From Shigella phage vB_SdyM_006, in sequence record MK295204: a DNA stretch of 64,000 nucleotides, one strand, 5' to 3'. A program made the position numbers and the translations under genes. Every line of letters begins with the position of its first letter. The first letter of the stretch is position 1. Positions 7,501 through 52,521 of this stretch are shown here, in pieces. Under the pieces are notes generated by a model. The model did no database searches. It worked only from the letters and a program-made list of their open reading frames with translations, and was not told the DNA's origin.

Positions 7501-8751
7501 ATGACCAATAAGATTCAAAAATTATTGCGCGAATCAAGTACAACAGCCAGTTCATCTAATGGACGTCCTGATCTTGTTGGGTTAACACGCGCAACACATG
7601 ATTTAATTTTTACAGATTTAATTGCAATACAGAATACAAATCAGCCAGAAGCGACTCTTTATGGTGTCAAATATTTAAATGACAATAAAGATATGAGTTT
7701 TATGACACCAGCTACATATTCTGGTGCTATAAAATCAAGAGAAAATATCGAAGAACTTGACCCATCTAAATCATATTCTAAAGATGATATGTTTAAATTT
7801 GAAGAAGTGGTTTATAAAGTCGTTAAAGATAATCCATTTACAGATTTGACGTCATTACCAAAAAATGAAGCTTTAGGCCAAGCAATTATAGATGGTTCTA
7901 TTAGATTTATGTCTGAAGCGGCATTAACTGGGCATTTTGAAAAGAAAGACGTAGAAATAGCAGAAGCTTCTGTCAGATTAGATCGTTGGAATATTCCTGT
8001 AAGAACAAGAAAAATTAAAACAGAGCTCACAGTTGAATTTGCTCAAGACTTAAATTCAAACCAGTTTGAAGCAGGTGCCGTAATTGATGACATGTTAGCT
8101 ACTATTTTAGCTGAAGATGTTAATAAAGACGTTATCCAAAAAATTATGACTGTTTCTAGTCGATATAAGGTTAAAGGAATTTCTGATAAAGGAATGTTAG
8201 ATTTAACCAAAACGGATGTTGCTCCTGAACAAGGACGTACTTTATATCGTTATATTTGTGAAATGAATGCGTCTATCGAAAGAAATACAACTTATGATGG
8301 GACATATGTTTTAGCTAGTTCAAGATGTGCTGCTATTTTGTCTGCATCAGGTTGGATGGATATTAATCCTGATTATCCTTTAGCCGCTGGCACACTTAAA
8401 AATGGCTTACCTGTTTATTCTGACCCTTGGTCTCCTGTTGACTATGTAGTTGTAGGAACTAAACAAAACCTTGGTGAGCTAGAACATGTAGGTTCTTTAT
8501 TCTATGCACCTTATATTGATTTTGATGGCGCAGGTGCTTATAAATTAGTTGTCGATCCAGATAGTTTACAACCTAAACTTGCTTTAATGGTCCGATATGG
8601 GTTATCAATTAATCCATATACAGTCATTGAAGTAGACGAAACACCTCAAAAAGAATCTATGTTAGTTCAAGGTGATGATTGGGACAATTTAGTTGGTAAG
8701 TCTAAAATGTCATATATTTTAGGTGTTCAATTACCTAAACTTATAGAATAA
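7501..8751 (+). CDS. 24: capsid vertex protein (gp23 paralogue)
   Basis: 416 aa, directly downstream of gp23; C-terminal pattern RYGLSINPY echoes the gp23 fold. Confidence 0.88.
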   Translation: MTNKIQKLLRESSTTASSSNGRPDLVGLTRATHDLIFTDLIAIQNTNQPEATLYGVKYLNDNKDMSFMTPATYSGAIKSRENIEELDPSKSYSKDDMFKFEEVVYKVVKDNPFTDLTSLPKNEALGQAIIDGSIRFMSEAALTGHFEKKDVEIAEASVRLDRWNIPVRTRKIKTELTVEFAQDLNSNQFEAGAVIDDMLATILAEDVNKDVIQKIMTVSSRYKVKGISDKGMLDLTKTDVAPEQGRTLYRYICEMNASIERNTTYDGTYVLASSRCAAILSASGWMDINPDYPLAAGTLKNGLPVYSDPWSPVDYVVVGTKQNLGELEHVGSLFYAPYIDFDGAGAYKLVVDPDSLQPKLALMVRYGLSINPYTVIEVDETPQKESMLVQGDDWDNLVGKSKMSYILGVQLPKLIE

Positions 8752-8765
8752 TTTATTTAATTTCC

Positions 8766-8806
8766 GGTAATTTATTACCTTTTTTGGGAACTTCGGTTCC
8801 CTTTTT
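8766..8806 (+). terminator. tandem terminators after gene 24
   Basis: GGTAA-TTTA-TTACC + TTTTTT, then GGGAAC-TTCG-GTTCCC + TTTTT. Confidence 0.75.
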
Positions 8807-8807
8807 A

Positions 8808-9371
8808 TTAGAAAAAATCATCTAATGTAAACTCTTTATATCCTATCATTTCTTTGAATTCGCACATCACTATTGGGTTATATAAATTATAAGTCTTTAT
8901 CCCTAAATAACGTGCTAGATAAACAGCTGTTCTTGTCCCTCCAGAAACATTCCCATATTTATCCTCAGGTGCCCAAAATATAACTGAATCAACAGGATTT
9001 TCTAAAGTAGGTGTTAATATTTGCATACAATTTCTACATTGAAGATGTTTAACAGTTTTAGAAACACTGTCTAATTTAGGATAAAATCTTCTTATAATAT
9101 TAGCGGCTTTTTCTTGGATTTCGTCATTAAAGTCTGTAAATATATGAACACCATTCCCAGAATAGTGATTATTGAACCCCTGGTGAGGAATAATAACACA
9201 TTTATTTTCAGATGAGTATTTCTTCATAAACAAATAATCACTCCCAGGCGCTCCTCCTGATGTTCCTAGCACTCCTAAATTAGAAATATATTCTCCACCA
9301 CTTATTAAAATATTAGATAAACGACTTGGTATTTTTCTTGACCCTATTAAAGCTACAGAATTTTTAACCAT
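8808..9371 (-). CDS. SLOG/DprA-like Rossmann-fold protein
   Basis: N-terminal pattern LIGSRKIPS...GTSGGAPGSD and C-terminal GGTRTAVYLARYLGIKTYNL resemble the DprA/LOG/YpsA (SLOG) glycine-rich nucleotide-binding loops; motif-level call only. Confidence 0.45.
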   Translation of the reverse strand: MVKNSVALIGSRKIPSRLSNILISGGEYISNLGVLGTSGGAPGSDYLFMKKYSSENKCVIIPHQGFNNHYSGNGVHIFTDFNDEIQEKAANIIRRFYPKLDSVSKTVKHLQCRNCMQILTPTLENPVDSVIFWAPEDKYGNVSGGTRTAVYLARYLGIKTYNLYNPIVMCEFKEMIGYKEFTLDDFF

Positions 9372-9380
9372 GCTAACCTC

Positions 9381-9400
9381 AAAAAGGACCCGAAGGTCCT
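9381..9400 (-). terminator. hairpin terminator 14 nt upstream of SLOG-like gene start
   Basis: AGGACC-CGAA-GGTCCT with T-run on minus strand. Confidence 0.55.
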
Positions 9401-9405
9401 TTAAT

Positions 9406-9561
9406 TTATTGTAAAGCTAAAATTAAACCCACAATAATAAACCATAACACAAACCCAATCCATAATGGTGATAACACCCATAGCCAAGACCAAGCAATGA
9501 CACCAACTAGTTTTAAAACAATAAACACAATACCTAGTACACCCAAAAATCCAATTTTCAT
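9406..9561 (-). CDS. small hydrophobic protein, 51 aa, likely membrane-embedded
   Basis: My own translation: MKIGFLGVLGIVFIVLKLVGVIAWSWLWVLSPLWIGFVLWFIIVGLILALQ; start 2 nt after upstream gene stop; followed by a hairpin terminator; below the ORF-track length cutoff. Confidence 0.35.
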   Translation of the reverse strand: MKIGFLGVLGIVFIVLKLVGVIAWSWLWVLSPLWIGFVLWFIIVGLILALQ

Positions 9562-9562
9562 A

Positions 9563-9808
9563 TTACCAACCTGTTATTTGTATTATATTAGAATCAAATT
9601 GGGTTCTTTTAACAGTTAACCCTTCGTTTTGTAATTTTGTAATAACTTTCTCTTGGACTCGGTATGAGATTTCACCTAGAGTCCAAGTTAAACTATCATA
9701 CCCATGTTTAGATTTAAGCATTAATCGCTTTGCAATATCATTAAACACCTGTTTAGATTCAAGCTCAACTAAGCTATCTTTAGAATCTTTTAATTTATCA
9801 ATAAACAT
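9563..9808 (-). CDS. hypothetical protein
   Basis: 81 aa ORF tightly packed downstream of rnlB. Confidence 0.4.
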   Translation of the reverse strand: MFIDKLKDSKDSLVELESKQVFNDIAKRLMLKSKHGYDSLTWTLGEISYRVQEKVITKLQNEGLTVKRTQFDSNIIQITGW

Positions 9809-9815
9809 AATAAAC

Positions 9816-10820
9816 CTATTTTGTAATTAAATTGACCCAATCTTTTCGAATGAATTCTTGTATTTCTTTTTGAATAGATTTCTTGATTAATGCTGGGTCA
9901 TCGTAATCAAGAATATCATGCCCGTCTTTTAACATATCTTTTAAAACATCCTGCATCATTAGACCTTGAACTTTGCCAAAATCTTTTGAAGATATTTCGC
10001 CAACATGGCTAATCACATTAGATAAACGTTGTGCAGTGATATATGATGTAGAAAAATTAACCAGTTCTTGGTCGTCATTTGATAATTCTGGTGTAGGTCT
10101 AATTGTTTTTACTTTACCAGTTTCTTTGAACTTAGCATTTTTACATTTAAAAATTACACGGCTTTTATTATTGAACTGTGTTGGAGTAATAGGTTTAAGA
10201 ACATAACCTTCTGCAATATTTTCTGAACCTTCTTTTTGAGGACCAAATACGTGGGCATTTGCAGCCGGAATACCATGTTCTTTTACTATTGCATTAAATT
10301 CTGGGATTAAAGAATCAAATGAACGCTCTAAATTACTTAATTCATCAAAGTCACCAGTTAAAATAACAGGGCAGATTTTAAGATTTGTTTTAGAAGATAA
10401 CATTCTTAAAAATAAAGCATCTACTAAATCACCATTAATTAAAATATCAAATACCCAGAAATCTTTTTCTTCGTAATCTACTTCTCGTTGAATACCAGGG
10501 CCTGCATATTCGCCAAAGACTGTTAAAAGTTCTAAGTCAGGCATTGATTCTTTAACAGTATTAAACATGTCAAGAATGTTTTGTTTATAACGCTTTAAGA
10601 TTAATTCGTATCCAAAAAATGCTTCAGATTCACCAATAAGATTAGTTCGTTTTGCACAAACAACATCTACACCATCACAAATAAAACTAAAATTAGTCCC
10701 ATGTATTTTTTCTTGGGCAATCCAAGGAATACCTGGTGCTGTTTTTCCTTCAAAAAAGGCCTTTTCTACTAATTTAGTGTTATCAATATTTTCAATAGAA
10801 TCATATTTAATAAATTGCAT
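9816..10820 (-). CDS. rnlB: RNA ligase 2
   Basis: 334 aa; nucleotidyltransferase lysine motif KIHGTN, plus blocks GYVLKP and KCKN-KF and GKVQGLMMQDVL matching T4 Rnl2. Confidence 0.9.
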   Translation of the reverse strand: MQFIKYDSIENIDNTKLVEKAFFEGKTAPGIPWIAQEKIHGTNFSFICDGVDVVCAKRTNLIGESEAFFGYELILKRYKQNILDMFNTVKESMPDLELLTVFGEYAGPGIQREVDYEEKDFWVFDILINGDLVDALFLRMLSSKTNLKICPVILTGDFDELSNLERSFDSLIPEFNAIVKEHGIPAANAHVFGPQKEGSENIAEGYVLKPITPTQFNNKSRVIFKCKNAKFKETGKVKTIRPTPELSNDDQELVNFSTSYITAQRLSNVISHVGEISSKDFGKVQGLMMQDVLKDMLKDGHDILDYDDPALIKKSIQKEIQEFIRKDWVNLITK

Positions 10821-11156
10821 TTATACCTCAAACAATCGTATTTTAAGACTAGTTGTATATTTGATTTCTAAATTATAAACTTTACCACTATAAACAACAA
10901 GAATTTTATTTGGGTTTTCTTCACACCACATTATATTATCGTCATTAATAATGTTTAAAAATTCTAGCTCTGAATAACAAGCCCACGAGAATGATTTACT
11001 TAAAAACTCTTTTAAATCAAGCCAATCGGTTTCGTCACAAATAGCAGGACTCATAACAGCAAGTTTGTGGGTATATGTTTCTTTATCACACCAACGAGTA
11101 AAAAACACTTCACGTTTTTCTTCTAAAGGAATAACACCAGCAGTATACCAAGACAT
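10821..11156 (-). CDS. hypothetical protein (paralogue of next gene)
   Basis: C-terminal NKILVVYSGKVYNLEIKYT aligns with NSILVLYIGESTQLEVKFT of 11166..11450. Confidence 0.4.
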   Translation of the reverse strand: MSWYTAGVIPLEEKREVFFTRWCDKETYTHKLAVMSPAICDETDWLDLKEFLSKSFSWACYSELEFLNIINDDNIMWCEENPNKILVVYSGKVYNLEIKYTTSLKIRLFEV

Positions 11157-11165
11157 AATAATTCC

Positions 11166-11450
11166 TTATTTGATTGGGATGATTCTAAATTTGTATTCAC
11201 CGCCACGAGTAAATTTAACTTCTAACTGAGTTGATTCACCAATGTAAAGAACCAAAATTGAATTTTTATTAGAACGTAACCAGTCTTGATATTCTTCAAA
11301 AGACTTGCGTAAAGATGGGATGCTATTTTTATATCGGCCTAAAATAGTCCATGAGAATTCACCACTGCCCATCCATTTAGTGGAACGGTCATATTTTAAA
11401 AGGTTTTCAATATCAATATTTAACCATGTTTTAAAGTTTTCTTTAATCAT
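11166..11450 (-). CDS. hypothetical protein (paralogue of previous gene)
   Basis: 94 aa; shared C-terminal motif with 10821..11156. Confidence 0.4.
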   Translation of the reverse strand: MIKENFKTWLNIDIENLLKYDRSTKWMGSGEFSWTILGRYKNSIPSLRKSFEEYQDWLRSNKNSILVLYIGESTQLEVKFTRGGEYKFRIIPIK

Positions 11451-11650
11451 TTTCTTACCTTCATTCGTTTACGATAAACTACTTTTTCGCGAGTTTTAAA
11501 TTCCTTCTGTTTTTGTTCAACTTCAATATAAACAGAAGCCATTTCTTTAGCTGTTCCACCCATTTTTCTGGCTATATCAACAAAGTGCATACCTTGTTGT
11601 TTAAGAAAGTGGATTTTTATTTTATCATGATTTGTCATTATTTTCTTCAA
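11447..11650 (-). CDS. hypothetical small basic protein
   Basis: 67 aa ORF; 4-nt overlap with downstream gene. Confidence 0.35.
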   Translation of the reverse strand: MKKIMTNHDKIKIHFLKQQGMHFVDIARKMGGTAKEMASVYIEVEQKQKEFKTREKVVYRKRMKVRK

Positions 11651-11831
11651 AATCTTTACAGATATCCAAGAGTTTTTTGTTTAAAGCTTCAACAAATTCT
11701 GTAGCTGAATCAGGGTATTCGTTAAATAAATAACACAAATACTCACTATGTATTTCATGGGCCACTTGAGAAACCATAGTCTTAAGTTCTTTATTCATAT
11801 AATCACCTCTCAATAATGTGTATTCTATCAT
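11625..11831 (-). CDS. hypothetical protein
   Basis: 68 aa ORF; overlaps both neighbours by about 26-29 nt, so the true start may be internal. Confidence 0.3.
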   Translation of the reverse strand: MIEYTLLRGDYMNKELKTMVSQVAHEIHSEYLCYLFNEYPDSATEFVEALNKKLLDICKDFEENNDKS

Positions 11832-12237
11832 CTAAAATATCATTAAGCATAGGACCAATGACATCCCAATTTAAGCCACCATTAGAACACCCTGGTTTAG
11901 GCAGGAGAACTCTTTTAAAATTGTTATTAGATACTATCTCCATTAATTCTAATGCACTCTTACGTATCAGGTCTTTATCAGACTTGTTATACCAATCATG
12001 TTTAGTAGGAAATGATATTAAATTAATGTTATTATATTTCGTAAGAATTCTGCATACATGGCCGTATTGGATTAAGGATTTAGCCATGATTAAGTCTAAA
12101 TTAGGAACCTTCAACGAAAAGAGACGGGCAATTCCGGCTCCCATAACAGCTCTTTTATTTTTCTTGATATTCATGTTTGTTGTAATGCAAATAGCATCAC
12201 AAGGGATATCAAGAATATTTCCAGATACTATTTTCAT
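11803..12237 (-). CDS. macro-domain protein (ADP-ribose binding/hydrolase fold)
   Basis: 144 aa; N-terminal GNILD-x4-DAICITTN and glycine loop AVMGAGIA, C-terminal LLPKPGCSNGGL, resemble macro-domain signature loops. Confidence 0.55.
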   Translation of the reverse strand: MKIVSGNILDIPCDAICITTNMNIKKNKRAVMGAGIARLFSLKVPNLDLIMAKSLIQYGHVCRILTKYNNINLISFPTKHDWYNKSDKDLIRKSALELMEIVSNNNFKRVLLPKPGCSNGGLNWDVIGPMLNDILDDRIHIIER

Positions 12238-12656: not shown

Positions 12657-12854
12657 TTATTTTACCTCAATAATAGTGAGTTCAGTATCTTCTGTCAAAT
12701 CACAAAAGTCAAAAGCCAATGCAGCAATACCTGGGTATTCTGATTCGTCAATAATACATTCAGTATTATTATTTTTGATGTCTAAGGCTAATTGATAATT
12801 AGACGTAGTAAATCCAAGTTCAAGTTCTTCGCACCATACGGTATACTTTTTCAT
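12657..12854 (-). CDS. small protein, tandem paralogue A
   Basis: 65 aa; aligns along its length with 12855..13049 (VWCEE, GF-T--YQLA, C-terminal IEVK). Confidence 0.45.
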   Translation of the reverse strand: MKKYTVWCEELELGFTTSNYQLALDIKNNNTECIIDESEYPGIAALAFDFCDLTEDTELTIIEVK

Positions 12855-13049
12855 TTATTTTACCTCAATGAGTTCACAATCGTATAAACAACTACACAGT
12901 TCACAAAAAGAATAAGCCGATGCATATGAATCAGTGTCTATCCAAAACCCAAGATTATCAATAGCACCTTTACGAACTTCATAAGCAAGTTGATAATCAA
13001 CTGTTTCAAATCCAATTTTCTTTTCTTCGCACCATACTATATATTTCAT
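12855..13049 (-). CDS. small protein, tandem paralogue B
   Basis: 64 aa; paralogue of 12657..12854. Confidence 0.45.
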   Translation of the reverse strand: MKYIVWCEEKKIGFETVDYQLAYEVRKGAIDNLGFWIDTDSYASAYSFCELCSCLYDCELIEVK

Positions 13050-20704: not shown

Positions 20705-20712
20705 TATTTATA
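20705..20712 (-). promoter_or_regulatory. late promoter TATAAATA for gene 51 (divergent, overlapping)
   Basis: Exact octamer on minus strand 17 nt upstream of ATG 20688; overlaps the plus-strand octamer by 4 bp. Confidence 0.5.
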
Positions 20713-52251: not shown

Positions 52252-52521
52252 TTAAAATAAGAAATCTAATGTATTCATTGTAAAAGATTTACGAACAGAT
52301 GGACGAAGCTCGTTGTTTTCTAAAGCTTCTTTAGTAATTTTATCAACTATAGCACCTGGTAAATACTTATTACATAAATTGTATGGAATAGAATTTTCTT
52401 CTAACCAATTTGTAGAAGCTTCTAAATAAGAAGCTCCTTCTTTAACTTTTTGTTCAATTAAAGCTCCAACTAATGTTGGGTCTTCTATATCAATATTATT
52501 GGTTTGGGAACAAAGAGTCAT
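52252..52521 (-). CDS. 33: late transcription accessory protein (gp33 position)
   Basis: 89 aa; position between gene 59 and dsbA as in T4; positional call. Confidence 0.5.
   Translation of the reverse strand: MTLCSQTNNIDIEDPTLVGALIEQKVKEGASYLEASTNWLEENSIPYNLCNKYLPGAIVDKITKEALENNELRPSVRKSFTMNTLDFLF

Follow-up and report, generated by a model that had tools for sequence, protein, structure and literature searches.

A minimal DprA-like SLOG protein in T4-like phages carries a candidate sliding-clamp-binding tail

What does a DprA-like protein do in a T4-like phage? The question is raised by a gene of Shigella phage vB_SdyM_006 (sequence record MK295204), of which a stretch of 64,000 nucleotides, here called the window, was analysed. 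The gene occupies positions 8808..9371 on the minus strand, close to gene 24 and to rnlB (RNA ligase 2), and is a genuine gene, not a chance open reading frame (ORF). Proteus phage phiP4-3 (Straboviridae, Bragavirus) encodes exactly the same protein, YP_010093637.1 (100% identity). At the DNA level the window closely resembles the phiP4-3 record without being identical to it (99.8% identity across 1.2 kb around the gene, 98.4% across 13.2 kb). The protein matches PHROG 768 over its full length (E 9.1e-57, 192.7 bits, residues 3-179 versus profile positions 3-182 of 191). It is named "DprA-like DNA recombination-mediator protein" in RefSeq and "DUF2493 domain-containing" in UniRef. An assignment to the SLOG superfamily with likeness to DprA, made in an earlier sequence-only reading, is right but already public, and the family is catalogued and widespread. 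Homologs were found by tblastn in 1,397 of 50,697 phage records, with hosts including Klebsiella, Pseudomonas, Escherichia, Vibrio, Aeromonas and Acinetobacter, and an exhaustive phmmer search returned 2,078 cluster representatives at E<=1e-3.

The features of the gene that bear on its function are listed below; conservation figures refer throughout to a family alignment of 124 homologs.

8808..9371, minus strand: gene for a single-domain SLOG/DprA-like protein of 187 amino acids, ATG start and TAA stop, PHROG 768
8811..8828, minus strand: tail T182-L-D-D-F-F187, candidate T4-type sliding-clamp (gp45)-binding motif
9336..9344, minus strand: loop G10-S11-R12 after strand 1, at least 90% conserved, aligned with DprA GTR/GSR (hmmsearch against the PDB, hhalign)
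9237..9260, minus strand: loop S38-G-G-A-P-G-S-D45 (SGGAxGxD), common to DprA (SGGALGVD)
9021..9035, minus strand: motif R113-N114-x-x-Q117 in helix 105-119, at least 90% conserved
8913..8942, minus strand: loop and helix G144-G-T-R-T-A-V-Y-L-A153 (GGTxTAV), aligned with DprA SGSMSSARLA

The C-terminal tail is the apparently new feature of this gene. The protein ends in KEFTLDDFF. In T4, gp43 ends in EKASLDFLFG and the DNA ligase has a loop GLDFLFD, and both proteins bind gp45 via this LDFLF-type motif; the C-terminal tail of gp43 can be exchanged with that of gp55 or gp33 (PMC6212786, PMC2988020). The corresponding sequences of the phage itself are KKSSLADLFDF at the C-terminus of gp43, NTLDFLF at that of gp33, PTLDAFYELSEED near that of gp55 (containing PTLDAFYE) and KQGLDLFFDEDEEE in the DNA ligase loop (motif GLDLFF; also given as QGLDLFFDEDEEE). 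The gp45 ligands (gp43, gp33, gp55 and the gp30 ligase) have a short hydrophobic-acidic motif in common with the DprA-like protein, and in gp43 and gp33, as here, it forms the very C-terminus and is preceded by a flexible stretch. There is no homology outside the motif, and clamp binding by the DprA-like protein is a prediction; for comparison, the peptide of the T4 ligase binds at about 10 uM.

The motif is rare in the phage proteome. In the assembled 167.8-kb genome (442 six-frame ORFs of at least 40 amino acids), the pattern [STG]L[DA]x[LF][FYW] occurs exactly five times in ORFs of at least 80 amino acids: in gp43, gp33, gp55, the DNA ligase and the DprA-like protein. In the first four, the motif is the site known as the T4 clamp-binding site, and a pattern derived from these four ligands alone still matches the fifth. 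One of them lies within the window and is the sole ORF there, besides the DprA-like gene, with a clamp-type C-terminal tail:

52252..52521, minus strand: gp33 homolog, late-promoter co-activator, PHROG 254, ending NTLDFLF

The tail is also maintained across a clade. Among 80 IMG/VR loci carrying the gene, 25 have a T4-type context, with gene 23, gene 24 or rnlB in the vicinity, and 24 of these encode such a tail: nine of the LDxLF type, eleven of the [FV]DIFxL type, which compares with the ...DMFDF ends of RB69 and S16 gp43, and four of looser type; the remaining one is a truncated ORF. No clamp-type tail was found at the loci outside a T4 context. The 20 closest relatives have conserved hydrophobic-acidic ends (for example TLDDFF, SLDWLF, SLDDLF, SLDFLF, TLDFLYD and SLEDLFG), and others end in FDIFSL (S16, PKO111) or TLDFLW (Miro). 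Variants such as TLDFLW, SLDWLF, SLDHLF, FDIFSL/AL/KL and VDIFNL are kept despite domain identities of 35-57%, and only in loci of T4-type context. In phage S16, gp43 ends in SLEDMFDF, gp55 contains NLDFLYEAED and the tail of the SLOG protein is KFDIFSL, which is compatible with matched motifs in a sample too small for a claim of co-variation. A literature search found no paper linking DprA-like phage proteins to gp45 or mentioning the tail of the T4-like clade, and the clamp-type tail appears to be a new element of this gene. As far as a motif can indicate, it suggests that the protein works on phage DNA instead of mopping up signalling nucleotides.

The domain that precedes the tail has the expected fold. 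An AlphaFold2 (AF2) model built on the family alignment has a mean predicted local distance difference test (pLDDT) score of 96.4 and a predicted template modelling score of 0.91. It contains five parallel strands alternating with helices, in a three-layer alpha/beta sandwich. As in SLOG domains, strand 1 is followed by a glycine-rich loop, and GGxGT-like loops are present. The Rossmann-like topology foreseen in the sequence-only reading is thus recovered in the predicted structure, and the three glycine-rich loops singled out there are present at residues 10-12 (GSR), 38-45 (SGGAPGSD) and 144-153 (GGTRTAVYLA). In fold comparisons, the model scored 13.6 with DprA entry 3maj and 13.2 with 4ljk, followed by TM1055 (12.5), the Moco carrier protein (12.3), ShosA 8zva (11.7), YpsA (11.0) and the ThsA SLOG domain with 3'cADPR (10.4); LOG enzymes scored about 9-12. 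The tail is the only lower-confidence segment of the model (pLDDT 69) and forms one helical turn. In a second model, in which the last 14 residues (EMIGYKEFTLDDFF) were fused to gp45 as gp45-(GGGGS)6-EMIGYKEFTLDDFF, the motif again formed a helical turn (pLDDT about 70, linker 35). This fusion model, obtained without a control, coordinates or predicted aligned errors, is compatible with docking but uncontrolled.

Profile comparisons also lead to DprA. The family profile matched DprA chains in the PDB at E 1.9e-5, and aligned by hhalign with an alignment of Helicobacter pylori (Hp) and Streptococcus pneumoniae (Sp) DprA and ShosA at 93.4% probability (E 3.8e-8, 194 columns). The HpDprA sequence was confirmed against 4ljk_A, and the SpDprA and ShosA segments came from the same PDB output. 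In this register GSR, SGGAxGxD, R-N and GGT are paired with DprA GTR, SGGALGVD, ARN and SGS, and LQCRNCMQI of the phage protein with FLARNRLVI. Among the 124 members, Pfam gave a weak DNA_processg_A match in 75 (best E 1.5e-8), LDcluster4 in 11 and YAcAr in one; neither YpsA nor LOG (Lysine_decarbox) was matched in any. Judged by these sequence comparisons, the protein is homologous to the DprA core over the whole Rossmann domain and represents the DprA branch of the SLOG Rossmannoid superfamily in a minimal, single-domain form, lying below curated DprA thresholds.

Several other identities were considered and rejected. A single-sequence PDB search matched TraM and surface protein G, both spurious. 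The catalytic motif of LOG enzymes is PGGxGTxxE; the corresponding loop here, S-G-G-T-R-T-A-V, is without the glutamate, and a PDB LOG chain (9us2) matched only marginally (E 0.061, residues 7-73). A cyclic ADP-ribose (cADPR) sensor of the ThsA/YpsA type was set aside on the lack of any family-level sequence match to ThsA (Thoeris effector sensor, 7UXS) and of the Pfam YpsA match mentioned above. The PADLOC match to the antitoxin PsyrA was marginal (E 0.054) and therefore too weak to back antitoxin mimicry.

The phage protein differs from characterised relatives in several ways. Bacterial DprA/Smf proteins (H. pylori 4LJK/4LJR, Rhodopseudomonas palustris 3MAJ, S. pneumoniae 3UQZ) have an N-terminal SAM domain, and many also carry a C-terminal winged-helix/DML1-like domain. 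The phage protein has neither a SAM nor a C-terminal DNA-binding domain, and is about 30 residues shorter than the DprA Rossmann domain. Between strands 3 and 4 it has helices 83-94 and 105-119, in a region with little DprA sequence similarity, and at its end it carries the phage clamp-binding-type tail. ShosA/PsyrA, the DprA-like antitoxin of the ShosTA/PsyrTA anti-phage system (8ZVA, 9VZO), is 318-331 amino acids long, with a SAM domain, an extra C-terminal helix and a phosphoribosyltransferase toxin as partner, whereas the phage protein stands alone, without a toxin partner. That it might replace ShosA is pure speculation.

Residues of the DprA pocket are conserved. G39 and D45 are invariant, and S38, A41 and G43 are at least 90% conserved. 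The arginines that bind single-stranded DNA (ssDNA) are R52, R143 and R170 in HpDprA and R139, R234 and R261 in ShosA (PMC12961424). R12 aligns with the first of them (chain residue R48 of HpDprA, R52 in the numbering of the paper) and R113 with the second (chain residue R139, R143 in the paper; R234 in ShosA), a mapping verified on the PDB sequences. R12 (= R52/R139) and R113 (= R143/R234) are at least 95% conserved both in the T4-like clade and in the general clade that makes up the rest of the family. The T4-like clade retains the shared core (GSR, SGGAxGxD, P62, RNxxQ, GGT and N162), has lost R37, W63 and H97, which are conserved in the general clade, and has a fixed set of its own (K88, D128, E136, R147 and R154). 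Some functional specialisation of the T4-like clade is likely on this residue pattern. The family median isoelectric point of 8.6 fits nucleic-acid binding and is non-discriminating.

From tail and pocket together we infer clamp binding, ssDNA binding and a downstream role on phage DNA, and the reading that we tentatively prefer, giving it somewhat short of an even chance, is that of a clamp-tethered DprA-like binder of single-stranded nucleic acid acting on phage replication or recombination intermediates. The protein would be produced from the early/middle-oriented rnlB transcription unit. Through its tail it would then be tethered to gp45 clamps on phage DNA, loaded at primer-template junctions, nicks and forks, where the DprA-like pocket (R12 of GSR, SGGAxGxD, R113-N114 and GGT) could bind the single-stranded nucleic acid exposed there. 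In this position it might, as an accessory factor, assist replication, recombination or repair, either handling ssDNA as DprA does, or guarding or flagging ssDNA against host attack. A bolder form of the proposal, for which we see a slim chance, makes the protein of the T4-like clade a replisome-resident, clamp-tethered ssDNA module that defends replication intermediates from host systems which sense ssDNA or act on it. It could be the DNA-targeting partner of Macro/NADAR de-ADP-ribosylases undoing DarT damage at the fork, or a stable, phage-made stand-in for labile ShosA that silences ShosTA abortive infection. If true, the protein would represent a new kind of counter-defence protein, one brought to its place of action by the sliding clamp.

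A number of points weigh against the clamp-tethered binder. The scan pattern was composed after the sequences had been seen, and the pLDDT of the tail is similar in the protein alone (69) and in the fusion (about 70), which had no negative control. Not all T4-like phages have the tail: the more distant Lazarusvirus, Tulanevirus and Menderavirus have tail-less general-clade genes, and it is such versions that Acinetobacter and Aeromonas T4-like phages carry. The position of the third arginine (R170/R261) is occupied by Y151 and is variable across the family; this arginine is dispensable for the antitoxin function of ShosA (PMC12961424). The conserved pocket residues are also generic nucleotide-binding elements of SLOG domains and therefore cannot tell ssDNA from a free nucleotide. 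Curated DprA models score far below their cutoffs on the protein (PF02481 DNA_processg_A, 17.2 bits versus 29.6, residues 4-80 only; NCBIfam TIGR00732, 11.7 bits versus 191.15), the sub-threshold similarity being confined to the first 80-95 residues. The domain spans residue 4 to about 176, which leaves no room for the SAM and C-terminal domains that DprA has. With UvsY, T4-like phages already possess a mediator, and a second one is therefore not obviously needed. A literature search found no experiment on this family.

The surroundings of the gene bear on both its expression and its possible partners:

9377..9380, minus strand: GAGG Shine-Dalgarno sequence with 5-nt spacing to the ATG, between hairpin and ATG
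9383-9402, intergenic, between the 51-amino-acid ORF and the DprA-like gene: hairpin with core GGACC-TTCG-GGTCC and T5 on the minus strand
9406-9561, minus strand: strongly hydrophobic ORF of 51 amino acids with two transmembrane-like segments, without a Pfam family match
9563-9808, minus strand: ORF of 81 amino acids, without a Pfam family match
9816..10820, minus strand: rnlB (RNA ligase 2), Pfam RNA_ligase (2.7e-21) and T4_Rnl2_C (7.8e-18)
11447..11650, minus strand: DUF2774 ORF
11803-12237, minus strand: Macro-domain ORF of 144 amino acids (Pfam PF01661, E 2.4e-4, 21.5 bits versus a cutoff of 22)

The DprA-like gene is the final gene of a minus-strand cluster that runs from the Macro ORF through the DUF2774 ORF, ORFs of 94 and 111 amino acids, rnlB and the 81- and 51-amino-acid ORFs. 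The claim that it stands beside RNA ligase 2 holds in so far as rnlB lies 445 nt upstream on the same strand, but two small ORFs intervene. In this lineage the two have been inserted between the flanking genes, and loci L013 and L014 have homologs of both in the same position. On its other side, the gene is tail-to-tail with gene 24 (7501..8751, plus strand) across a gap of 56 nt. In T4 (NC_000866), no more than 29 nt separate the convergent genes 24 and rnlB, and T4, as had been stated, has no such gene at that locus. The hairpin that had been placed upstream of the start was likewise found: it begins 3 nt past the stop codon that precedes it, leaves 13-14 nt between the end of its stem and the ATG, and looks like a terminator or an RNA-stabilising hairpin. 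A scan for sigma-70 promoters gave background level only. No T4 late promoter (TATAAATA) lies on the strand of the gene within 11 kb upstream, the nearest being at 20705-20712, and expression timing is judged from orientation only, because the late-promoter count in the window is at chance level.

A few further observations concern the same neighbourhood. A strong terminator-like hairpin (GGGAAC-TTCG-GTTCCC followed by T5) lies at 8786-8801 on the plus strand, just past gene 24 and inside the convergent gap; the TTCG tetraloop is common to this hairpin and to that at 9383-9402. The Macro ORF is intact in RefSeq phiP4-3 (99.3% amino acid identity), where the annotation consists of a 141-bp coding sequence (gp092) and the remainder is unannotated. 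Two adjoining ORFs of 65 and 64 amino acids, at 12657-12854 and 12855-13049 on the minus strand, resemble tandem paralogs (MKKYTVWCEELELGF... and MKYIVWCEEKKIGF..., both ending ...IEVK), and similar C-terminal halves are found in the ORFs of 111 and 94 amino acids at 10821-11156 and 11166-11450. Elsewhere in the phiP4-3 genome, genes for arabinose-5-phosphate isomerase and phosphoheptose isomerase adjoin the DNA polymerase gene (L006 21589-24292), which suggests an unusual sugar modification pathway in this phage.

Across phages the neighbourhood varies. Outside the T4-like group there is no rnlB, and the neighbours are genes of replication and nucleotide metabolism, including a P-loop ATPase, ribonucleotide reductase, primase and RuvC; clustering of neighbours in the 80 loci revealed no single partner conserved outside the T4-like group. 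The domain is found fused to NADAR, DUF4326 and YAcAr and in association with Macro domains, and related SLOG domains are fused to an SF1B helicase. It also lies inside giant ORFs of 1,269-2,892 amino acids (IMG/VR L071, L075, L082 and L086; proteins P0031 and P0060), and proteins of 1,475 and 1,488 amino acids contain it twice, together with YAcAr and NADAR, in a polyvalent-protein architecture. Other associations were seen in individual lineages. In a Tulanevirus (Aeromonas phage 60AhydR15PP, L010 3546-4985), a 479-amino-acid ORF that lies beside gene 55 and has a P-loop-like N-terminus (AIPAAGKT) shares 4 nt at its start with the tail-less homolog; the two may form a different conserved partnership. 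In Klebsiella phage Miro (L003 5892-7325) and Stenotrophomonas phage YB07 (L011 180-1682), members of the unrelated groups Slopekvirus and Menderavirus, a gene for nicotinamide phosphoribosyltransferase is found about 1.3 kb away from the DprA-like gene.

It has been predicted for viral SLOG domains (Iyer et al. 2022), and was also suggested in the sequence-only reading, that such proteins act against host defence, here as a sponge or N-glycosidase for an immune nucleotide, for instance an ADP-ribose derivative such as an isomer of cyclic ADP-ribose. Aravind and colleagues read the fusions and Macro neighbours as signs of ADP-ribose-derivative processing (PMC9503650), which counts against the preferred ssDNA reading, and the family examined here, with its NADAR, DUF4326 and Macro fusions and polyvalent proteins, is the PHROG 768 family of their surveys (Iyer, Burroughs, Anantharaman, Aravind 2021, 2022). 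Those surveys place most viral SLOGs in a YpsA-like clade and predict sensing or degradation of cADPR, whereas this family scores closest to DprA; in an earlier paper from the same group, the copies in jumbo phages were called DprA/Smf ssDNA binders (PMC7824862). The NADAR protein of T4 (gp30.3, AdfN) strips ADP-ribose from DNA and so defeats DarTG1 (PMC11257639), and because it acts on DNA, the NADAR fusions are at least as consistent with a DNA-targeting role. A search of the phage genome for a NADAR gene found none; tblastn gave a weak match (E 1.6e-5) of DUF4326 to the small hypothetical gp035 of the phiP4-3 genome (22982-23167). Of the earlier interpretation, the SLOG/DprA-like fold stands, and the second-messenger role is kept as an unlikely alternative. 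A further alternative is catalysis on nucleotides or DNA bases, for instance the removal of a modified or ADP-ribosylated base at the fork by an N-glycosidase or nucleotide-processing enzyme: enzymes of the SLOG/TDS (TIR-DrHyd-SLOG) clade cleave N-glycosidic bonds (PMC9503650), the NADAR fusions tie the domain to the reversal of DNA ADP-ribosylation, a clamp tail would suit a fork-associated repair enzyme, and the T4-like clade has a set of invariant polar residues of its own (K88, D128, E136, R147 and R154). However, all residues invariant across the family are common to the non-enzymatic DprA, no candidate catalytic acid is conserved family-wide, and the loss from the T4-like clade of R37, W63 and H97, conserved in the general clade, leaves no evident stable active site. 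This catalytic role is the least probable of the alternatives.

The proximity of rnlB could point to an accessory of RNA repair, which would bind single-stranded or nicked RNA, or an RNA-DNA junction, and work with RnlB. RNA ligase 2 is able to seal RNA-3'OH/DNA-5'P nicks. The two genes form a translationally coupled pair in many T4-like phages: rnlB is directly upstream of the DprA-like gene and overlaps it in S16 (by 22 nt), Miro (11 nt) and PKO111 (1 nt). In 20 of the 25 loci of T4 context the two are on one strand and no more than about 1 kb apart, and in 13 of these 20 the genes overlap or are at most 21 nt apart. In Slopekvirus the pair stays together away from gene 24, and one database protein (P0093) joins the C-terminus of Rnl2 to the SLOG domain as a fusion or read-through. 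Yet most of the family (non-T4 phages, Lazarusvirus, Tulanevirus and Menderavirus) lacks the rnlB neighbour, Krischvirus has the gene adjoining gene 24 without rnlB, and T4 has rnlB without the gene. In the window the two genes are kept apart by two ORFs and a terminator-like hairpin. Their adjacency may reflect synteny by descent, and the clamp tail points toward DNA. Partnership with RNA ligase 2 is rather improbable.

The function of these proteins matters beyond a single phage. Genes called "DprA-like" are present in well over a thousand sequenced phages, many of them therapeutic (Klebsiella, Pseudomonas, Acinetobacter, Escherichia), and the name has been copied across phages from profile matches. 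The published guesses compete, an extra ssDNA-binding protein on the one hand and a degrader or sensor of immune signals of the cyclic ADP-ribose type on the other, and the clamp-type tail of the T4-like clade offers a direct way to separate them. If the tail binds, the protein would be a new client of the T4 gp45 "tool-belt", placing a DprA-type domain at the phage replisome, and this would bear on how phages cope with DarTG, ShosTA and other defences directed at ssDNA, as well as on the role, so far unexplained, of RNA ligase 2, the product of its conserved neighbour.

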